The translations under genes and the position numbers were made by a program. Source: a candidate division WS2 bacterium ADurb.Bin280 (GTDB lineage Bacteria; Patescibacteriota; UBA1384; DTJR01). From it: a DNA stretch of 64,000 bases. Shown here in pieces: positions 52,382-64,000 of the stretch; positions within the stretch are counted from its first letter, which is position 1; the number at the start of each line of letters is the position of its first letter. Below the pieces are notes generated by a model. The model was not told where the DNA came from. It saw nothing but the letters and a program-made list of their open reading frames with translations, and searched no databases. The stretch is from contig MWBO01000031.1 in assembly GCA_002071685.1 (NCBI GenBank), positions 702 through 64,701 of the forward strand, written 5' to 3'.

Positions 52382-53596
52382 CTAAGTTATTTGAGAAAGC
52401 TCCAAGAGCTCCGGCGAGTCGCTGTTTCGTTTTTTGATCTCGATTTTGTCTTGAGTTTTTTCTGAAACAACAAGGCGATTTGGCATACCAAGCAGATCGG
52501 CATCGGCGAATTTCTCCCCCGCCGAAAGGTCGCGATCGTCAAAAATAACTTCTATCCCCCTTGAAACAAGCTCATTATAGATCTCGTCCGCCCTCTGCTT
52601 GCTATTTTCTCCCAGAGAGATCAGGTGATATTTATAAGGAGCAATACCCTCCGGCCAAATAATTCCTTTTTCATCTTTGTTCAATTCAACAGCCGTCCCC
52701 ATCAGTCTTTGAATACCGATTCCATAGCATCCCATCAAAACCGGCTTAATTTTTGAATCCTTATCGACAAAATTAAGCTCGAACGGCTGACTGTACTTTG
52801 TTCCAAGTTTGAAAATATTGCCAACTTCAACTGCCTTTATAATTTGATATTCCTTGCTTTTGCATTCCGGACATTCAAAGTCTCCCTCGACGATCTCTTT
52901 ATTGACCCCCGTGGAGCAAGCGTTACAGACATATATTTCATCCTCGCCGGCGTCGGTTTCGCTCTGAAATTCGTGAGAATATTTCGAGAAAGTTCCTCCT
53001 GAGGCATAAACGAGATAAGTCTTTTGTCTGATGCCTGTTCTTTCAAAAATTTTCCAGTAAGATTGCAGAACTTCGTCGTAATATCTGTCCAAGTCCTCTT
53101 GGTTCTCGTGAAATGAGTAAAGATCCTTCATCAAAAATTCCCTAGTTCTAAGAACGCCTGACTTTGCTCTCGCCTCGTTTCGAAACTTATTTTGTATCTG
53201 ATAAAGACCGAAGGGTAAATCTTTGTAAGAAAGGGTAAACTTTTTGGCAAGGGGGGAAACGATCTCTTCGTGAGTGGCGCCCAAAGCATATTCTTTTTCA
53301 TCCCTCCCCTTCAATTTAAACAAAGCATCAAAATTATCATACCTGTCGGTTGTGACCAAATTTGCTTTGGGAATGAGACCGCTCATCAGAATTTCCTGCG
53401 CCTCAAGAGCGTTTATCTCCTCTCTGATAATATTTGAAATTTTATTAACCACCCTCAAGCCAAGAGGCAAAAGAGTATAGATACCGGCAGCAACTTTATC
53501 AACATAACCCCCTCGAATCAAAAGCTGGGCGCTCAAGGATTGCTCGTCCTTGGGATAGTCCTTAATTGTCTTGCTAAAAGATTTGGAAAGTCTCAT
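52382..53596 (-). CDS. proS: proline--tRNA ligase, short bacterial-type form without an INS editing domain
   Basis: Class II motifs (SHEFQ, MGCYGIGIQR) and an anticodon-binding C-terminus. A CNAC...CPEC Zn-ribbon-like insert sits where the INS domain normally lies. Confidence 0.85.
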   Translation of the reverse strand: MRLSKSFSKTIKDYPKDEQSLSAQLLIRGGYVDKVAAGIYTLLPLGLRVVNKISNIIREEINALEAQEILMSGLIPKANLVTTDRYDNFDALFKLKGRDEKEYALGATHEEIVSPLAKKFTLSYKDLPFGLYQIQNKFRNEARAKSGVLRTREFLMKDLYSFHENQEDLDRYYDEVLQSYWKIFERTGIRQKTYLVYASGGTFSKYSHEFQSETDAGEDEIYVCNACSTGVNKEIVEGDFECPECKSKEYQIIKAVEVGNIFKLGTKYSQPFELNFVDKDSKIKPVLMGCYGIGIQRLMGTAVELNKDEKGIIWPEGIAPYKYHLISLGENSKQRADEIYNELVSRGIEVIFDDRDLSAGEKFADADLLGMPNRLVVSEKTQDKIEIKKRNSDSPELLELSQIT

Positions 53597-56624: not shown

Positions 56625-57737
56625 ATGCCAAAGGACAATCTCGCCAAAAAAATAGAATATGGCGCAATAGCTCTTTTTTTTGCCATCGCCATAGTTCTGT
56701 CTTTGCGACACATCGCCGCCATTTCTTCTGATATTGAAAATGGGGCGAATATCGATCCGGTCAAAATGACTGATTTTACAAGAAATGGCGCTTATGACAA
56801 AAGCTCCTTTATTCTTTTTTCAAATACTTCTTCAAACGAAATTCTCTCAAGCGATCAAAACGGCTTGAAAATAATAAACCTGCAAGATAAATACTCCAGC
56901 TTCTTGGCACAACCAGTTATTTTGCAAAAAGATGTAAAATACAAGATCACCCTAGAATACCAGATGGTTGGAGCTAATGGGGATCTTTCTGCAACATACG
57001 GCATAGTAATTGGCGAACTCATAGGAAAGCCGATTTTCAGTCAAAGCATTTCAAAAGACAAGAATAACGATTCTTTTGAGTTTACGATGAGCGAAACTAC
57101 ACCGATCGCTTTCCAGTACATAAGAGTTTTGGGCGAAGGTCAATTTGTTTTGCGCTCAATAATGCTTGAAGAATCAGGGGGCGGAAATTTCACTCAACCA
57201 CCAAGCGAACAGCAAACGGCAACACCATCAAGCAAGGAAAAGAGTTCGCCTGATGCGGAAGATTTACTGATCATCAAAAACGGCTGGAGCGCTTATGGTG
57301 CAAGAGAAGCCATCGAAACAAAAGTTTTCACCCAAAAAAATATCAGTGTTTATCAGATGGAGGGCGAAGGCTGGAAAGTGGCAAAATCTACCGACAAGAA
57401 TTCTGACTTTACGATCCAAAAAGGACGCGGGGTTTATCTGCTTAATGAAAATGGCAAACAAATCGAATTAGAGGAATCGTTCATCGAGTCTAATGAGAAA
57501 ATTGTGGCAGGGAAAAACTGGAATATTTTATTTTCTGAAGATAAATCAAGAACCAATCAATTAACCTTTGATCTCGATGGCGGCCAAACCAATCTGGACG
57601 AAGCTCTTGGCGAAAGCAAGATTGCCAAATTTGCCTACCTCATAGACCCGCAACTCTCTTCCAATATGACCAAAATTGATCTCGAGAAGATAAAAGAAAT
57701 ACCGTCAGGCAATCTAATTTGGTTTTATGTTTTCTGA
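56625..57737 (+). CDS. membrane-anchored hypothetical protein
   Basis: N-terminal TM segment followed by beta-rich domains. Divergent from the ABC operon. No family recognised. Confidence 0.5.
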   Translation: MPKDNLAKKIEYGAIALFFAIAIVLSLRHIAAISSDIENGANIDPVKMTDFTRNGAYDKSSFILFSNTSSNEILSSDQNGLKIINLQDKYSSFLAQPVILQKDVKYKITLEYQMVGANGDLSATYGIVIGELIGKPIFSQSISKDKNNDSFEFTMSETTPIAFQYIRVLGEGQFVLRSIMLEESGGGNFTQPPSEQQTATPSSKEKSSPDAEDLLIIKNGWSAYGAREAIETKVFTQKNISVYQMEGEGWKVAKSTDKNSDFTIQKGRGVYLLNENGKQIELEESFIESNEKIVAGKNWNILFSEDKSRTNQLTFDLDGGQTNLDEALGESKIAKFAYLIDPQLSSNMTKIDLEKIKEIPSGNLIWFYVF

Positions 57738-57907
57738 AGATCTTGTGTCGGCTGCTTTATTTTTTTGTGATTTTTGCTAGAATTACATCTGTGCAAAAAG
57801 GTTTTCAAACGCAATGTCTCCGCCAGCTGGCGGATGGTGGTTAGGACCTGCCTACCGGCAGGCGGGCACCAGGCAATCGTCAGGTGATCGTTATGAATTC
57901 AATTGGA

Positions 57908-57982
57908 GGCCCCATCGTCTAGTGGTTAGGACACCAGGTTCTCATCCTGGCAACCGGAGTTCGACTCTCCGTGGGGTCACCA
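57908..57982 (+). tRNA. tRNA-Glu (anticodon CTC) with encoded CCA
   Basis: Cloverleaf folded by hand: acceptor GGCCCCA/TGGGGTC, D arm GTCT-AGTGGTTA-GGAC, anticodon arm CCAGG-TTCTCAT-CCTGG, T arm CGGAG-TTCGACT-CTCCG, then A-CCA. Confidence 0.9.
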
Positions 57983-58068
57983 ATTGAATTTATAGAGATA
58001 AGGAATAGATACCAGAGAAAGTATAACTACAATAAGTTAAAAGATTACAGAGACCAGATAACTACATT

Positions 58069-58424
58069 AAATTAAAAGTTAAAAATCAAAAATTAAAATG
58101 ATAATTAAAAAATAAAAAAGATTACAAAATTATTTTCTAGTAGCCAAAGCTACAGACAATGATAGAACCAGAGGGGCTTAATTGCCTGCCCTGTCGTAGT
58201 TAGCTAAATTGCTAACGAAGGAGGGCGAGGCAGCCCCTATGGTTCTATCGAATCCTTACGGCGCACGCTTGTTTCAAGAGCAAAAAATAAGCTTTTCTTT
58301 CTGGCAAACCCTCTCGACAAGTTTGCGAGCTTCCGCCAGAAGCAAAAAGCTTATTTTTCTTCCTGAAACTTTATTACATTACAAATACTTGGATTCTTAA
58401 TCCTTCATTCATCATTCTTAATTC
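58069..58424 (-). repeat. non-coding element copy L, inverted homolog of copy R
   Basis: Shares with 61382-61792 (as reverse complement) the GAATTAAGAATG head, a long AT-rich hairpin around the conserved CGCAAACTTGTCG, a GC-rich second hairpin (58161-58249) and the TTTTTAACTTTTAATTT tail. Confidence 0.55.
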
Positions 58425-58545
58425 TGAGATCTTAATTTGATAATTGCTTAATTGAGTTTGGGAGGGACGCGACCTCCCCAGAACGATGTTTCGAAAAGTG
58501 TGAGCCCCCAATGTGAGCTCGCGTCCCTCGGGTGTCCCGCGCGCG

Positions 58546-58716
58546 TTAGACACCGCCGACACAGGCGTTGTGCTCTTCGGCGCTCCTTTCGGCGCGCTCA
58601 AGCACAGCTAGCTCTACAGGCGTCAGAGCTTGACCGCTGTCCCTCTTCTCCGCGAGACTCGCGATGCGCTGGGCCTTTTCGGCATTTGCTTGTGCGGCTC
58701 TCGAACCTGCTGACAT
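58546..58716 (-). CDS. small hypothetical protein (56 aa), GC-rich island E
   Basis: AGGGAGGA SD 4-5 nt upstream of ATG 58716. Predicted helical, Ala/Glu/Arg-rich. No family recognised. Confidence 0.4.
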   Translation of the reverse strand: MSAGSRAAQANAEKAQRIASLAEKRDSGQALTPVELAVLERAERSAEEHNACVGGV

Positions 58717-58786
58717 GTCGTCCTCCCTGCGGTTCTGCCCCCGCAAGCGGGGGGTCGTTCTCCGTCGCGCGCGACGGGATATGATA

Positions 58787-58815
58787 ATTACAGCAAAAAA
58801 TTTCTAACAAGTCAA
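58787..58815 (-). promoter_or_regulatory. candidate promoter of island E ORF
   Basis: On the minus strand: TTGACT (58815-58810), 17-nt spacer, TGTAAT (58792-58787). Overlaps the stop of the upstream oxidoreductase gene. Confidence 0.35.
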
Positions 58816-59990
58816 GATAGGAGTTCTTTCAAGAGATCATCTGTTTTTATTTTAGTGCCCAATGATTGGCGGGCGATTTTCGTTTTTTGCAAAAGATTTA
58901 GAGTGCTTATGCCGACAACCTTGCCTTCCTTTTCAAAAATTGCTGCGTAGCGCTCGCCCGATGCCATATCACTCATCTGATATTTTTTATCGGCGCTTCC
59001 ACAGAAGAATAGCTGGCAAGACAAGACTTTTTTTGAAACCATCGTATATGTTTGCGACAAGACATCGCCTCCCGAGGCGTTTAAACCTGCTATTTTGCCT
59101 GATTCTTGAGCAAAAAGATAGTTCCCGGGCAGGCTCCACTCGTGTGAAAAAGGATCCTCGAACTGGCAAACATCTCCGCAAGCATAGACATCCTCAAGCG
59201 AACTGCGCATCCTTTTGTCAGTCACTATTCCCTTATCGATCGCCAAACCAAGCGATTTGGCAAAATCAAGATCTATCTTCAAACCTATTGCCGACACCCC
59301 TAGATCAAAATCAACCCTTTCTCCGTTATCAAGAATCGCTGTTCTGACGGCTTTTTCTGATGAGATTTTTTCTACTTGAGCGTTAGCAATAATCTTCACG
59401 CCCGCTTTTTGCAAACTTTTTTGTAAAATTTTTCCCCCCGCCTCACCAAGACGATTTTGCAAAAGATAGTCATCACGCATTATCAACACAATCTTTTTGC
59501 CAAGCTCAGCAAGTCCGTCGAGAAGGTCGAGTGTCAAGAAACCCCCTCCGACTACCAAGACTTTTTGTGCATTTTGCACCTTGTCCTTGAGATTGACAGC
59601 ATCTTGGAGCGAATAAAAACTCAAAAACGCATCCTGCGCACCCTGCACCTCAAGCCGTCTTGGCTGACCACCGCTGGCGATAATCAATTTATCAAATTCA
59701 ATCTGCTGACCGCTTTCCAGTTTGACCCTTTTTTCATCATAGCGCCCCTCGACTACCCGCCCCTTCGTCAACTCAATCTTGTATTTTTCATAAAATTGCT
59801 CACTTCGCAAAAATAACTTGTCTTTTGAAATTTTTCCAGAGAGGAAATGATGAAAAATTATTTTACTATAGAGACAATGCCCCTCTTGATCAACGACCAA
59901 AACCCTGCCCTCAGAGTCGTTTTCCCTGATAGCTTGAGCCGCCGCTATTCCGGCGGGCCCTCCGCCAATAATCAAATAATCGGTTTCCAT
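58812..59990 (-). CDS. FAD-dependent pyridine nucleotide-disulfide oxidoreductase family protein
   Basis: DYLIIGGGPAGIAAA and VLVVGGGFLTLD dinucleotide-binding motifs, plus an ACGDV motif. Confidence 0.8.
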   Translation of the reverse strand: METDYLIIGGGPAGIAAAQAIRENDSEGRVLVVDQEGHCLYSKIIFHHFLSGKISKDKLFLRSEQFYEKYKIELTKGRVVEGRYDEKRVKLESGQQIEFDKLIIASGGQPRRLEVQGAQDAFLSFYSLQDAVNLKDKVQNAQKVLVVGGGFLTLDLLDGLAELGKKIVLIMRDDYLLQNRLGEAGGKILQKSLQKAGVKIIANAQVEKISSEKAVRTAILDNGERVDFDLGVSAIGLKIDLDFAKSLGLAIDKGIVTDKRMRSSLEDVYACGDVCQFEDPFSHEWSLPGNYLFAQESGKIAGLNASGGDVLSQTYTMVSKKVLSCQLFFCGSADKKYQMSDMASGERYAAIFEKEGKVVGISTLNLLQKTKIARQSLGTKIKTDDLLKELLS

Positions 59991-60037
59991 TTGTTACATC
60001 CTAGAGTATAAAAAGAAAAAATCAAATAGATGGGCTT

Positions 60038-60439
60038 CTACTTATCGTCGTCTTCTTGAGTCTTGTCTTTTTTGGTGGTTTTCTTTGGCTCTTGGTCCTC
60101 TTGTTCGTCATTGCTGGCTCTGCGTTTTTTGAGAACATCGGAAATCCCCACCACCATGCCGAGACCTTGAGAGATTTGTTCACTTTTTTCCCTGATCTGC
60201 TTTTCCGCTTCTTCGATCAATCCAATGAAATGGCTGGCAAGCGTTCCGATACGATCAATCGCCTCGGAAACCATCAGAACCTTCTCTTTCACTTCGGCGG
60301 TCATAATCGCTACATCGTCAGTTGATTTGCGAAGAGAGCGACTTAGTTTGATCAGGTCGAGAATTAGCCAAACCAAGGCAACGGTCAGAACCACCACCGC
60401 TACCGCTACTATTAGGTACAAGATTTCTACGGGTTGCAT
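60038..60439 (-). CDS. small membrane-anchored coiled-coil protein (DUF948-like architecture)
   Basis: N-terminal TM segment, a helical region and an acidic/basic tail. The assignment rests on architecture only. Confidence 0.35.
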   Translation of the reverse strand: MQPVEILYLIVAVAVVVLTVALVWLILDLIKLSRSLRKSTDDVAIMTAEVKEKVLMVSEAIDRIGTLASHFIGLIEEAEKQIREKSEQISQGLGMVVGISDVLKKRRASNDEQEDQEPKKTTKKDKTQEDDDK

Positions 60440-61299
60440 TATTGCGCCTCCCTTTGATTAGTTTCAACAGGATCGCCCCCATTGTTCCCAATTGACTCAA
60501 GAAAATTTAGAAGCGCCTTTCGTTGTTGCTCTGATAAGTTACCAACAATTTCTTGAATCTGGCCGAGAGATCCTTCGGCTTGGCGAAGCGCTGCAAGCGA
60601 ATCTTGGCCTAATTCCGTCGGTACGGGTTGTTGGGGGGATGTGCCATTGGCGACGTCGGGAGTAATTGCTTCGTTACTTGGTTTAGGAAGGGGCAAGCCA
60701 CTCGTGTTTATAAACGAAGCAGTTTCGGGGGCTTCAGCGGTTATCACGGGAGCTTTTGGGGGTGGCGCGGGAATCGGAGAGGGCGCTTGGCTCTCAAGCT
60801 GATCACCGATTGCAACTTGGCCAAAGTTCATCTCATTTTTTTGGGTTTGGAATGATTGCGAAGGATCTTCCGTCGTGGCCGGCTGTTGCGGATCAACAGG
60901 CAATCCAGCGATGTGATGTTCAAGTGCAAGAGGATTATCAAGTGGCGGGACGGCATCGGGGTGAGAATTTTGATTTACAGGGGGCTCTTGTGCGACACTT
61001 GACTCTTGAGGTGGTGTATAGACAGGATTTTCGGCTACTGGTGGCTCGATCGGTATTTGAACCGATGGAGTGGGCTCGGGCGATGGCACAGAGACGGCTG
61101 GCTCTTCTGCAGTCAAATGATTTTCAGCTGAGGGAAGCGACGTTTCAGAGGGCGTCTCTATCGGAATTCGATTAGTAACAGGCGAATCGATAACTGGTGG
61201 CGTTTGGGGTGTTTCTTCTGGCAAGGCTTGTGACGGAACTTCCGGCCTAGAGACCTCCATACCGACCTGCCCAGTCTGCGGACCCTGATTTATTTGCAT
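60439..61299 (-). CDS. proline-rich hypothetical protein
   Basis: 286-aa ORF that is P/E/Q/S-rich with a short structured C-terminus. First gene of the minus-strand block. Confidence 0.5.
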   Translation of the reverse strand: MQINQGPQTGQVGMEVSRPEVPSQALPEETPQTPPVIDSPVTNRIPIETPSETSLPSAENHLTAEEPAVSVPSPEPTPSVQIPIEPPVAENPVYTPPQESSVAQEPPVNQNSHPDAVPPLDNPLALEHHIAGLPVDPQQPATTEDPSQSFQTQKNEMNFGQVAIGDQLESQAPSPIPAPPPKAPVITAEAPETASFINTSGLPLPKPSNEAITPDVANGTSPQQPVPTELGQDSLAALRQAEGSLGQIQEIVGNLSEQQRKALLNFLESIGNNGGDPVETNQREAQ

Positions 61300-61381
61300 T
61301 TTCCCCTCAAAAAATTAAATCTATAAATTTATTTGATTGTATCACAAAACCGATTTTTTTCATTATTTACTATAGAGATAA

Positions 61382-61792
61382 GAATTAAGAATGCAGAATT
61401 ATGAATTAAGAATTAATTAAACAATTAATCAATTAAGAAATTATGAATTTGCGTTTCGGGAAGAAAGTAAAGATTTTCGTTTGTTAAATTTCAAAACTTA
61501 TAAATTCCATTAACAAAAGATGATTTTTCTTATCTACTTGAGTACCGCGCAAACTTGTCGCCGGGAGTCTCAAGAGAAAGAAAAATCATGCTTTTGAGCG
61601 TGCAAAGATGGTGGGTTGTAGGGAGGAAGAAACGCTTCGCAATTAGTGTCTTCCTCCCTACATTAGTAAATAGACTTTAAGTATAAAGATTAAACTTTGC
61701 TGTCTGATATTTTTAAACTTTTCTTTATAATCTTAAGTCGCCTGCCTCAGCTATGCTGAAAGCATTGCGGGCAGGTTTTTAACTTTTAATTT
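61382..61792 (+). repeat. non-coding element copy R
   Basis: Hairpin arms 61515-61542 / 61569-61595 surround CGCAAACTTGTCG (61548-61560). A GC-rich hairpin lies at 61618-61661 and a terminator-like hairpin at 61741-61775. Confidence 0.55.
61739..61785 (+). terminator. terminator-like hairpin at the 3' end of element R
   Basis: CCTGCC (61741-61746) pairs with GGCAGG (61770-61775), with an inner ATGCT-GAA-AGCAT hairpin, followed by TTTTTAACTTTTAATTTTT. Confidence 0.5.
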
Positions 61793-61804
61793 TTAATTTA
61801 TTCC

Positions 61805-62905
61805 CTACTTCCCATGGTGAAAATAGATAACATCCGCTTCATTGACAACATAGTCCTTGCCCTCAAGACGGACCTTCCCCGCCTCTTTCGACCCCTTCCA
61901 ACCTCCGAGTGTAATGAAATCTTGGTATGAAACTACTTCGGCTTTGATAAATTTATGCTCGAAATCTCCGTGAATCGCCCCGGCCGCCTGCGGAGCCTTG
62001 GAGCCCTTTTTTATCTCCCAAGCCCTCGCCTCCATTTCGCCTGCGGTGAAAAACGAGATCAATCCGAGCGTCGTGTATGCCGACCTGATTAGGCGATTGA
62101 GCCCCGGCTCTTCGAGCCCTAAATCGCTCAAATATTCTTGACGGTCAGATTCCATGAGATTATTGAGCTCTGATTCGGTCTTGGCACAAATCACCGCGAC
62201 CTCTTCGGTTTTCACTAGATCCTCAAGATCGAAGCGTTCAATAATCTCCTGCGGATCGCTGGTAGCATTTTCTTCCGAAACATTAAATACATAAAGAAAT
62301 GGCTTCAAGGTGAGAAAATTCGCCTCCTTAAGCAAGTCCGCCTCCTCCTCGCTCAAAGATGCTTCAATCGCCGGCCTTGATTTTTCAAAAGTTTCCAGAA
62401 CCTTCTGATAAGCAACTGTCTTTTTGGTCGCCAATTTATCCCCTGATCGAACATCTTTTTGAATAGCCGACAATCTTTTGTTTAGCGTATCAGTATCGGA
62501 CAGAATCAGTTCGGTAATGATCGTCTCAATATCATTTCTGGGTGATGGATTGGACGACACATGCATCACATCATCGTTTTTAAATATCCGAACCACCATG
62601 GCAATCGCGTCAACTTCGCGAATATGTGAAAGAAATTTATTTCCAAGCCCCTCGCCCTTATGTGCCCCCTCAATCAATCCGGCAATATCTACAAATCTAA
62701 CCGTTGCATTGACTATCTGCTTTGAATTTTCCACCTCTTTCAAATGTTCGAGACGATCATCCGGCACATCAACAATGCCGATATTTGGGTCTATCGTGGT
62801 AAATGCAAAATTTGCCGCCTCCGCCAACTCGCTCTTGAGCATGGCATTAAACAGCGTCGATTTGCCAACATTAGGAAGCCCCACAATACCTATACTAAGC
62901 GACAT
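61805..62905 (-). CDS. ychF: redox-regulated ATPase YchF
   Basis: GIVGLPNVGKSTLFNA P-loop, a TGS-like C-terminus and full-length similarity to YchF/OLA1. Confidence 0.9.
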   Translation of the reverse strand: MSLSIGIVGLPNVGKSTLFNAMLKSELAEAANFAFTTIDPNIGIVDVPDDRLEHLKEVENSKQIVNATVRFVDIAGLIEGAHKGEGLGNKFLSHIREVDAIAMVVRIFKNDDVMHVSSNPSPRNDIETIITELILSDTDTLNKRLSAIQKDVRSGDKLATKKTVAYQKVLETFEKSRPAIEASLSEEEADLLKEANFLTLKPFLYVFNVSEENATSDPQEIIERFDLEDLVKTEEVAVICAKTESELNNLMESDRQEYLSDLGLEEPGLNRLIRSAYTTLGLISFFTAGEMEARAWEIKKGSKAPQAAGAIHGDFEHKFIKAEVVSYQDFITLGGWKGSKEAGKVRLEGKDYVVNEADVIYFHHGK

Positions 62906-63054: not shown

Positions 63055-63119
63055 AAATGACTCAATAATTAAAAAACTCAAACCACAAGGCTCATAATAA
63101 CAGGTTTGGAGAGATTCGT

Positions 63120-63145
63120 AAACGGCTCATTTGAGTGAGCCGTTT
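63120..63145. repeat. second copy of the AAACGGCTCA/TGAGCCGTTT hairpin
   Basis: Same 10-bp stem as 24652-24677. The loops differ at 2 of 6 nt (TTTGAG vs TACGAG). Confidence 0.7.
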
Positions 63146-63156
63146 ATTTTCGAGAT

Positions 63157-63195
63157 AAAAAAAAAGGGGGCGCGCTCCGTTAAGGAGCTGCCCCC
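63157..63195 (-). terminator. intrinsic terminator of the island F bicistron
   Basis: On the minus strand: GGGGGCAGCTCC-TTAAC-GGAGCGCGCCCCC followed by T9. It lies 16 nt after the stop at 63212. Confidence 0.65.
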
Positions 63196-63211
63196 GAGCA
63201 CTACGATACTG

Positions 63212-63559
63212 CTAGGGCTCGTTCACCCCGATTAGTTCGAACTCAACGACCCGATCGTCCGGAAGGGCAATGGCGAAATCTTGGTCACCACCTCCCCGAC
63301 GATAGATGCGAAGGTCGCTGTAGAAGCGCGTACCTTTGCAAATCGGCAGACTGTGAGCGGGTATCAATCCGCTCCCGACTGAGCGTGGCGGGCTCGAAAG
63401 CTCCACGACATGCACGAGCAGACCTTCGCCACTCGCTTCCTCGACACGTACAGCATATGACCTGTAGCTCCCCTTGTGTCCAATCTTCAGGCGAAACGTT
63501 CTACCCTCACAGGGGACTCCAGCAACAAGGTCAACCACTGCGTTGGCTTGAGCGTCCAA
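63212..63559 (-). CDS. hypothetical protein, GC-rich island F, gene 2 (115 aa, TTG start)
   Basis: GC-rich ORF with GAGG upstream and a strong terminator downstream. No family recognised. Confidence 0.45.
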   Translation of the reverse strand: MDAQANAVVDLVAGVPCEGRTFRLKIGHKGSYRSYAVRVEEASGEGLLVHVVELSSPPRSVGSGLIPAHSLPICKGTRFYSDLRIYRRGGGDQDFAIALPDDRVVEFELIGVNEP

Positions 63560-63587
63560 CTTCGCATCACCTCGAATCCTGTCTTCT

Positions 63588-63971
63588 TCAACAAGGCCTG
63601 AGCCTGCACTCAGGATACTGCGACAAGCAGTCCGTGATATCGAAGATCTCAGCGATCATTTCGCCGGTCTCGGCGATCACGACACCCTGATGATTCGATG
63701 CTTTCTCAAAACGCGCAGGAAGATACCGCCTCCCAGTTCTGATCGGAATGAGGGGGTAGGGCAACATCACCTCGTTGGTCAGATCGCCTTCCTGAAGTCG
63801 CCCAAGGATACTATCCTTGAACCACCGATCGTGGCTGAAGTAATAGATCCTTGCGCTCCCTCTTGCGGTAGCTCCCTCGCTCCCGACTACTTTGATCAGA
63901 TAGATGCGACCGGCTCCATCAGGACCGGAGATCGGCCTCACACCGATTGAGGCGGCAGTTGCGATTGGCAA
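63588..63971 (-). CDS. hypothetical protein, GC-rich island F, gene 1 (127 aa, TTG start)
   Basis: GAGGGAG SD 9 nt upstream of TTG 63971. No family recognised. The island continues to the window edge. Confidence 0.45.
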   Translation of the reverse strand: MPIATAASIGVRPISGPDGAGRIYLIKVVGSEGATARGSARIYYFSHDRWFKDSILGRLQEGDLTNEVMLPYPLIPIRTGRRYLPARFEKASNHQGVVIAETGEMIAEIFDITDCLSQYPECRLRPC

Positions 63972-64000
63972 AGCTCATCACTCCCTCGTGGTATCGTTCA

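Follow-up and report, generated by a model that had tools for sequence, protein, structure and literature searches.

Two intergenic elements, here called L (58069-58437, minus strand) and R (61379-61799, plus strand), were identified as diverged copies of one structured non-coding element in a 64-kb stretch of contig MWBO01000031.1 from the candidate division WS2 bacterium ADurb.Bin280. This whole stretch of 64,000 nucleotides is referred to as the window, and coordinates without a locus name are counted from its first letter. The source is a bacterium within the Candidate Phyla Radiation (CPR), and its nearest named relatives are Berkelbacteria. An earlier note, made from the letters of the window, had proposed the kinship of L and R, which is borne out by the scores of a covariance model, by at least 11 further copies from other genomes, and by covariation within the helices. 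Judged from sequence, L and R are probably paralogous genes of an undescribed family of structured small RNAs, each transcribed independently. As far as sampled, the family is limited to a Berkelbacteria-like CPR clade. Loci from other genomes are designated by L and three digits, with a or b added for two copies at one locus.

Architecture and covariation

The core of the element spans about 185 nt within full units of 250-400 nt, and its 5' boundary reads (CCC)GUUUCWGGAA. The first hairpin, P1, is long. Its inner stem varies, a UUCGCUUCU/AGAAAGAA segment is conserved, and its apex, which reads CGCAAACUUGUCG on the element strand, is invariant. The 13-mer of this apex is identical in all ten rows of alignment A3, a hand-trimmed MAFFT alignment of ten sequences from which the loop insert of L was excised. 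P1 is followed by a linker composed of AGCGUGC and a G-rich run, in which the AGCGUG core is near-invariant across copies. The second hairpin, P2, has a stem of 16-17 bp that is wholly different between copies (e.g., GUUAAGGAUAGGGGGC, AUUAAAACCAUAGGGGC, and UGUAGGGAGGAAGAAA) and a conserved loop of the form YGCYUCGCAA (CGCUUCGCAAGUAG, UGCCUCGCAAUUAA, and similar), within which UCGCAA is invariant in A3. A YCGCAA motif occurs in the loops of both P1 and P2. Between one and three small GC hairpins close the core at its 3' end. The P2 loop of L, L014, and L020b carries an extra helix, always at the same point between UUCG and CAA, and such insertion of helices at one fixed site in a loop is characteristic of structured RNAs.

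Pairing was evaluated on a structure of 56 base pairs. In A3, 92.9% of the cells were paired, compared with 43-58% when the 3' partners were slid by 1-3 columns, and 26 of the 56 pairs showed compensatory changes in which both sides had changed. The covariation score was 0.32 against at most 0.09 in the slid controls, and the observed values were reached by none of 500 shuffles. A second alignment of 12 sequences, A4, was fitted to the model and leans towards it; there, 94.7% of the cells were paired and 36 of 56 pairs were compensatory. The claim that the arms differ in sequence yet still pair is upheld by these compensatory changes in both alignments. Folding with RNAalifold, which the earlier note had recommended, independently predicted P1. 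The description of the second hairpins as unrelated holds for their stems, which are wholly different, and fails for the loop, which is conserved and identifies the hairpins as homologous.

Two other structural interpretations were tried and rejected. The CUGAUGA found in some P1 arms recalls a hammerhead or box C/D motif, but the segment covaries as an ordinary helix (GAUGA/UUAUC versus GGCGG/UUGCC). A kissing interaction between ACUUG of the P1 loop and CAAGU of the P2 loop was discarded since many copies have CAAUU or CAAC and no covariation was seen. Some minimum-free-energy folds also contain a putative helix P0 between the 5' CCC and the GGGG of the linker, which is either present or absent and never covaries.

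The kinship of L and R is visible at the level of the family. In pairwise comparison, their best local alignment is the 13-mer alone (z ~3.7-5 against dinucleotide shuffles), so that the formal alignment called for in the earlier note rises barely above shuffled sequences and homology is established at family level only. This low pairwise score is what one would expect if two AT-rich spacers bearing hairpins resembled each other by chance. Such a coincidence is hardly credible given that the family model assigns E-values of ~1e-26 to 1e-29 to both copies and that a strict sequence pattern retrieves six copies from a single related genome, its three matches in unrelated phyla lacking any hairpin context.

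Copies in other genomes

The pattern in question, which is present in L as well as in R, consists of CGCAAACTTGTCG followed after 8-20 nt by AGAAAGAA, and it was run on one genome per species. The scan retrieved six copies on five contigs of one metagenome-assembled genome (MAG), Candidatus Berkelbacteria LacPavin_0419_WC90_MAG_42_10, hereafter the Lake Pavin MAG. The three matches in unrelated phyla are apparently due to chance. Among Joint Genome Institute (JGI) metagenomes, the scan recovered four true contigs (L017/L021, L019, and L020), as well as three matches without hairpin context. L019 and L020 carry two copies each. Viral contigs gave no match to the pattern, and a distant blastn search with one Lake Pavin copy against phage and plasmid collections gave none either.

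Covariance model R1 was built from A3 and scores L at 130.6 bits (E ~1e-29) and R at 115 bits (E ~1e-26). A model-based search for more copies had been suggested in the earlier note, and further copies were indeed found in the MAG, on metagenome contigs, and in L006. R1 detected no third copy in the 64-kb window but added three diverged ones (L006 5602-5777, L019 163-353, and L020 151-397). The L006 copy lies on the ychF contig of a relative and has the apex CCGCACACUUGUCGG, and in L019 163-353 and L020 151-397 the apex is replaced by a different hairpin. No copy was found by R1 in the ychF loci of the relatives L002, L004, L005, L024, L025, and L026; an "empty site" comparison is therefore feasible for R only.

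Two subtypes of P1 were distinguished. The long type, with an outer GUUUC...GAAAC stem, is found in L, the six Lake Pavin copies, L017, and L020a, and the short type, which starts CAAAAG...CUUUUG, is found in R, L006, and L019a. L019b and L020b combine a short P1 with a replaced apex. Since each subtype recurs in several genomes, the two are old paralogues. R and the L006 copy have exact stretches of 25 nt and 16 nt in common, and L matches L013 with 86% identity across 147 nt and L016 with 96.6% identity across 58 nt. The window and L013 have two proteins in common that are 70-80% identical, and the one syntenic spacer compared between them is completely different in length and sequence. Thus, the element is either conserved well beyond neutral expectation or moving between relatives. 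In the Lake Pavin MAG, types of P1 and P2 occur in differing combinations, which argues for recombination among copies, and one copy consists of P1 only.

Copies often lie near one another and then differ in subtype: L and R are 3.1 kb apart and head to head, L020a and L020b are adjacent and head to head, and L019a and L019b are 2.6 kb apart. Within L020 1-700, the two head-to-head copies are separated by about 20 nt. An identical bidirectional terminator and an identical downstream flank lie behind both of them, suggesting that the pair arose when a gene end and its element were duplicated in inverted orientation.

The neighbors of the copies encode MiaA, a UvrD-like helicase, a CarboxypepD_reg-domain protein, a radical-SAM protein, YchF, and several unknown proteins, with no recurring family. 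Neither a transposase nor an integrase, reverse transcriptase, or nuclease was found beside any copy. The orientation of the copies relative to their neighbors is mixed, which argues against a simple role as leader or 3' untranslated region (UTR). We consider it improbable that the element acts in cis, as a leader or 3'-UTR module controlling or stabilizing the adjacent mRNA. About five copies (L014, L015, L016, L017, and L019a) do have a co-directional gene 70-150 nt downstream, and L directly follows an operon on the same strand; however, R and L008 are antisense to both of their neighbors, L020a and L020b face each other, the adjacent genes (MiaA, UvrD, YchF, radical-SAM, and unknowns) are mutually unrelated, and between the L006 copy and the gene upstream of it there is an intrinsic terminator.

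The same distribution is what a selfish or cis-acting intergenic repeat would produce, that is, an element of the kind represented by miniature inverted-repeat transposable elements (MITEs), repetitive extragenic palindromic (REP) sequences, ERIC, or Correia. It could be a non-autonomous DNA element or a hairpin repeat that works in mRNA as stabilizer or terminator; it would spread by transposition or recombination, and its hairpins would count in single-stranded DNA or mRNA and not in a dedicated RNA gene. The copies are multiple, dispersed, intergenic, and found in either orientation to their neighbors, their positions vary among genomes with 70-80% identical proteins, and mosaic P1/P2 combinations as well as a P1-only copy exist. 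Moreover, R is a clean insertion of ~440 bp relative to related genomes, L adjoins a local inversion of tRNA-Glu, and a Logan assembly breaks at the P1 boundary. We regard this explanation as the main rival, a possible one although doubtful on balance. The element does not end in inverted repeats, and six copies show no visible target-site duplication; neither a transposase nor a RAYT, TnpB, or integrase gene was found beside the copies or among the genes scanned at 44.5-64 kb of the window; and the copies are few, with six in the MAG and two in the window. Besides, conservation is stronger in the loops than in the stems, the opposite of what REP-like repeats show; extra helices enter at a fixed loop position, the sequence is kept across genomes where neutral DNA no longer aligns, and G·U pairing is biased towards one strand.

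The Logan contig (SRR17648133, L001) corresponds to window positions 58372-60331 with 100% identity and stops at the base before P1 of L. De Bruijn assemblies typically end in this way at a repeat or a strong hairpin, which is a hint of additional P1 copies in the community sampled.

Strand and transcription

The pairs of the structure include 26 G·U pairs on the element strand against 9 A·C mismatches, which favors the strand that had been chosen for the elements in the earlier note. Likewise, R1 scores are 115-200 bits on the forward strand and 13-49 bits on the reverse strand. Together, the G·U bias and the forward-strand scores point to a single-stranded molecule, most simply an RNA, on the strand that reads CGCAAACUUGUCG.

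R ends in a strong hairpin, GCCUGCC...GGCAGG, followed by UUUUU (61740-61780, plus strand), which substantiates what had been described as terminator-like. It was recognized from folds as an intrinsic terminator and works in the plus-strand reading only, as the minus-strand reading lacks a U tract. No other plus-strand gene could use this terminator, so that it would end the transcript of R itself; as far as sequence can tell, it is the best single argument for R as its own transcription unit. Canonical terminators on the element strand also follow both L020 copies. As for initiation, a TTAAGA-16/17-AAGAAT spacing with weak -10-like hexamers is readable by eye in the heptad heads of both L and R, and a promoter may lie there.

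The reverse complement of the R terminator (61740-61776) agrees by eye at 30 of 36 positions with L025 15508-15543, upstream of tRNA-Glu and in the same orientation relative to ychF. This likeness has no BLAST significance and may be a coincidence.

Anatomy of L and R

The modules listed in the earlier note (the hairpins, the 13-mer in both apices, and an exact 17-mer in the tails) were all located where it had placed them. Read from 5' to 3' on the minus strand, L starts with a head (58393-58437) that Tandem Repeats Finder (TRF) resolves into a period-7 array, (TAAGAAT)n, of 6.4 units. P1 of L (58271-58369) is of the long type and 99 nt in length, as delimited by folding, R1, and pair counts. 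It comprises an outer stem GUUUCAGGA/UCUUGAAAC, the variable inner stem, the conserved segment UUGCUUCUG/CAGAAAGAA, and the apex CUCG-CAAACUUGU-CGAG, in which the 13-mer CGCAAACTTGTCG occupies 58315-58327 (minus strand). The linker, assigned from A3, is AAGCGUGC followed by GCCGUAAGGAUUC (58250-58270). P2 (58161-58249) has a 17-bp stem, GAUAGAACCAUAGGGGC/GCCCCUCUGGUUCUAUC, and a loop whose halves, UGCCUCG and CAAUUAA, are split by the extra helix of ~40 nt. Downstream lies a small hairpin P3, GUAGC-UUUG-GCUAC (58140-58153), whose counterpart in the Lake Pavin copies is GUAGCCC-GAA-GGGCUAC. The tail (58069-58118) is again a period-7, AT-rich array, (TTAATTT/TTTTTAA)n, according to TRF.

R has the same plan on the plus strand. 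Its head (61379-61416) is a (TAAGAAT)n array of 5.4 units (TRF), with more AT-rich repeats up to ~61447, and the heads of L and R have the exact 12-mer GAATTAAGAATG in common. A stretch at 61451-61479, GCGTTTCGGGAAGAAAGTAAAGATTTTCG, resembles the 5' arm of a long-type P1 when compared by eye with CCGTTTCAGGAAGAAAAATCAGCTTTTTCG of L008; weakly supported by this comparison, it could be a remnant of such an arm. P1 of R (61514-61596) is of the short type, 83 nt long and devoid of the outer GUUUC/GAAAC stem, with the apex (CC)GCG-CAAACUUGU-CGC(CGG). Here the 13-mer lies at 61548-61560 (plus strand), and these two apices are the only sites of CGCAAACTTGTCG in the 64-kb window. The linker (61597-61616) consists of AGCGUGC and AAAGAUGGUGGGU, and it is followed by P2 (61617-61662) with the stem UGUAGGGAGGAAGAAA/UGUCUUCCUCCCUACA and the conserved loop CGCUUCGCAAUUAG. 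The tail (61776-61799) is a (TTTTTAA)n array of period 7 (TRF), and an exact 17-mer is common to the tails of L and R. Both elements are far more stable than their shuffled versions (z = -9.7 for L and -6.4 for R).

The four arrays forming the heads and tails of L and R are the sole period-7 arrays in the window and flank the two elements in matching orientation. They lie outside the core that is common to other genomes. A GAATTAA array without a structured core occurs in the Lake Pavin MAG (L013 2178-2300). Short-period tandem arrays are also frequent in the intergenic spacers of the clade, where they look like the L and R heads and tails and lack the structured core; examples are an 8-nt array (NNGCCAGA)n after ychF (L006 11095-11170 and L007 5300-5370) and TTTAAAATTT-type runs in L005 11100-11260.

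Gene block, R insertion, and tRNA-Glu neighborhood

On the minus strand, the locus is arranged as ychF (61805-62905), the spacer that holds R (61300-61804), a gene for a Pro-rich protein of 286 aa, a DUF948-like gene of 133 aa, a Pyr_redox_2 oxidoreductase gene, a GC-rich island, and the spacer that holds L. The YchF protein encoded here shows 100% identity to that of ADurb.Bin280. Every gene around R is on the minus strand, and R is thus antisense to both of its neighbors. The island, island E (58456-58760), contains an open reading frame (ORF) of 56 aa with a good ribosome-binding site, which was called as a gene on an independent contig as well. This ORF ends the operon that L follows directly on the same strand. 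Beyond L, the gene for tRNA-Glu(CTC) (57908-57982) is convergent with the L spacer.

Relatives with 68-77% YchF identity (L002/L003, L004, L024, L025, and L026) have the ychF, Pro-rich, and DUF948-like genes in the same order and orientation. The Pyr_redox_2 gene comes next in L002, L004, and L025, with extra genes intervening in L004 and L025. As these relatives keep the gene order without the elements, the 3-kb block represents ancestral gene order rather than a cassette, and a special meaning of its bracketing by L and R, which the earlier note had pointed out, is not supported. The spacer between ychF and the Pro-rich gene measures only ~40-50 nt in most of these relatives. Given this short spacer where the element is missing, R is an insertion of ~440 bp between ychF and the promoter of the Pro-rich gene, whose extended -10 sequence TGTGATACAAT is still recognizable by eye at ~61343-61355 in comparison with L002 and L004.

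The tRNA-Glu gene is convergent with the ychF cluster in the window and co-directional with it in three relatives (L004 13083-13125, L024 13792-13866, and L025 15586-15660). Genes further out, namely an ABC transporter, a 180-aa ORF, and a class-II aminoacyl-tRNA synthetase (52382-53596), keep the orientation seen in the relatives. For this reason, only a small segment around the tRNA (57740-58000), beside L, appears to be inverted. The acceptor stem of tRNA-Glu is extended by a flanking helix of 12 bp, GAATTCAATTGG/CCAATTGAATT, that includes CCA. Its leader of ~110 nt contains a pseudo-copy of the 5' half of the tRNA (TGGTGGTTAGGAC...ACCAGG), split by the GC-rich hairpin CCTGCCTACCGGCAGG, and a partial tRNA-like stretch is present upstream of tRNA-Glu in L025 as well.

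The 12-nt direct repeat reported in the earlier note, TATAGAGATAAG, is exact (57991-58002 and 61371-61382) and extends to 15 identical positions out of 17. It is rarer than expected by chance, since an equal number of matches at up to one mismatch was reached in only 1 of 100 shuffles. The repeat delimits neither an element nor the pair: one of its copies starts the head of R, and the other lies past the 3' end of the tRNA, beyond the tail of L.

A cassette of 3 kb, mobile or invertible, with L and R as its inverted ends, or an island at tRNA-Glu with L and R as scars resembling attachment (att) sites, is suggested by the outward-pointing, inverted copies next to a tRNA gene, by this direct repeat at 57991 and 61371, and by the inversion of tRNA-Glu relative to related genomes. 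We nonetheless hold it to be very improbable. The block is contiguous with ychF, in the same order, in L002, L004, L024, L025, and L026, none of which has the elements, and no recombinase is encoded in the 3-kb block. L and R belong to the same family as copies that stand singly elsewhere, and the direct repeat flanks L and the block but not R. Furthermore, as two different old subtypes whose longest exact match is 17 nt, L and R are poor substrates for homologous inversion.

In every genome examined, small GC-rich ORFs (60-65%) occupy the slot between the oxidoreductase and tRNA-Glu (e.g., L004 10500-11340 and 12700-12915; L025 14730-14880 and 15055-15420), and these ORFs are mutually unrelated. 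Such GC-rich islands, set in a genome that is AT-rich, seem to be a recurring phenomenon of their own. A further GC-rich stretch (53-57% GC) covers 63100-64000 and contains two minus-strand ORFs, at 63212-63559 and 63588-63971, without a Pfam match.

Proposed function and significance

If L and R are genes of a small-RNA family, as we favor, each unit would be transcribed on its own from the strand reading CGCAAACUUGUCG. The RNA would fold into two hairpins whose stems need only pair and whose loops are held constant, namely CAAACUUGU at the apex of P1, on a stem with a CG clamp, and YGCYUCGCAA in P2. These loops may form the working surface and bind a partner common to both, which could be a protein or a target RNA. 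Judging from the mosaic combinations of P1 and P2, the copies would arise by duplication and by recombination between copies, and they would occupy different intergenic sites in different genomes.

Several observations weigh against this proposal. Fitting A4 to the model inflates its pair counts, and many of the sequences are related, so that the covariation counts do not represent independent events. A canonical terminator is missing from L and from the Lake Pavin copies, in which the last hairpin is followed by AAAA and then by a U-rich run. Matches resembling sigma-70 promoters are no commoner than in shuffled sequences, and no convincing conserved promoter emerged from them. The search for targets complementary to the loops in the 64-kb window found none. 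In addition, an independent assembly stops precisely at the 5' base of P1, the behavior expected of a repeat, and the dissimilar positions of the copies between related genomes and their mosaic make-up fit a selfish repeat equally well.

A further scenario, which we judge unlikely, envisages a new lineage-specific RNA class of CPR bacteria with mobile and recombinogenic genes, in which the YCGCAA loops bind a partner, a freely variable and self-complementary segment of the inner stem serves as a specificity or identity tag, and the RNA or a DNA hairpin possibly takes part in DNA rearrangement. It would explain the mosaic copies, the head-to-head pairs (L/R and L020a/b), and the inversion of tRNA-Glu at the boundary of L.

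Genomes of CPR bacteria (Patescibacteria) are tiny and poorly understood, and no lineage-specific non-coding RNA was found for them in Rfam or in the literature searched. In the family described here, covariation is unusually clear and two invariant loops are apparent from only about a dozen sequences. The retention of several copies per genome suggests a real cellular role, for instance as a regulatory or protein-binding RNA. The covariance model is an immediate handle for mapping the distribution of the family and the proteins that co-occur with it, and the defined loops make pull-down and mutational tests straightforward. If the element instead belongs to the selfish repeats, it would be uncommon among them, with a low copy number, conserved loops, and no transposon hallmarks, and it would serve as a marker of rearrangement sites and assembly breaks in these MAGs.

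Comparison with known systems

The absence of a known family, as claimed in the earlier note, was confirmed by Rfam scans of the window and of the loci. At the gathering thresholds of Rfam 15, tRNA-Glu alone passes in the window. Permissive scanning of 57700-62000 and of four loci (L011, L017, L019, and L020) yielded at the elements only generic hairpins of miRNA precursors, all far below threshold. A search of the literature on structured RNAs, repeats, and MITEs of CPR bacteria or Berkelbacteria found nothing relevant.

Several more specific identities were rejected. The attC sites of integrons have the consensus 5'-RYYYAAC...GTTRRRY-3', form arrays in direct orientation, and have intI nearby. 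P1 starts with GTTTC and ends with GAAAC, which is the opposite arrangement, the copies are solitary, and the block encodes no integrase. Arrays of tandem interspaced guide RNA (TIGR), found in CPR bacteria and phages and the sole RNA system linked to CPR that came up, comprise 5-15 tandem units with two alternating repeats of 8-12 nt and 9-nt spacers; they adjoin a Tas gene with a Nop domain, and their spacers A and B do not covary (PMC12045711). The element is like them in occurring in CPR lineages and in alternating conserved and variable segments on a hairpin-forming RNA. However, its units are solitary, its variable segments are mutually complementary and covary, its neighbors are housekeeping genes, and no Tas-like gene is adjacent. 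A guide RNA of the OMEGA or bridge type (TnpB, IscB, and IS110) was rejected as well, because no ORF for a cognate nuclease or recombinase lies beside any of the 12 copies and neither HEARO nor IS605-orfB of Rfam matches. Readings as a parS-like site, signal recognition particle RNA, 6S RNA, or retron were dismissed for wrong architecture or lack of a partner gene.

Among intergenic palindromic repeats and MITEs, ERIC/IRU, the Correia element of Neisseria, bcr1 of Bacillus, and the pneumococcal BOX and RUP elements are the closest parallels. Like them, the element is dispersed, non-coding, and 100-300 nt long, is dominated by a long imperfect hairpin, occurs in either orientation, and is associated with assembly disruption and local rearrangements. 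With at least six copies in the MAG and two in the window, it is multi-copy, dispersed, shorter than 500 bp, and devoid of a conserved ORF, as MITEs are. Unlike these repeats, it is most conserved in its loops and not in its arms, has a second hairpin with a conserved loop of its own, has a low copy number, and keeps its sequence between genomes whose proteins are 70-80% identical. No terminal inverted repeats of the MITE kind were found, as the 5' end reads (CCC)GTTTCWGGAA, the 3' end consists of the P3/P4 hairpin and ACAAAA, and the palindrome is internal to P1. Nor did direct repeats indicative of a target-site duplication flank the six Lake Pavin copies, whose 3' boundary is variable and poorly defined. 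A parent insertion sequence or transposase was found neither beside the copies nor at 44.5-64 kb of the window, a scan that did not extend to whole genomes.

REP sequences, together with bacterial interspersed mosaic elements (BIMEs) and REPINs, are likewise intergenic hairpins, at times in inverted pairs (as L020a/b and L/R are) and with compensatory changes in their stems. REP/BIME units are 20-40 nt long, present in hundreds of copies, and characterized by a conserved 5' tetranucleotide and an associated RAYT gene. The element differs in its P1 of 83-100 nt, its core of 185 nt, its two or more helices, and its two copies in 64 kb, and no Y1 transposase or RAYT gene was found among the neighbors of the copies.

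The remaining comparison is with sibling small RNAs of bacteria, such as Qrr1-5, LhrC1-5, and the protein-sequestering RNAs of the CsrB/CsrC type. On the one hand, the element has no sequence or Rfam relationship to any of these, is far larger and more intricate, with a P1 of 100 nt and optional inserted helices, and varies in gene position between related genomes; to our knowledge, no Hfq, CsrA, or similar partner has been described in this lineage. On the other hand, several intergenic paralogues exist per genome, with conserved loops and with stems that drift under compensation. A conserved covarying structure is combined with conserved unpaired motifs, and R, L020a, and L020b have their own terminators on the element strand. 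We therefore rate L, R, and their relatives as an undescribed and unclassified family within a broad known kind, that of multi-copy structured intergenic RNA elements.

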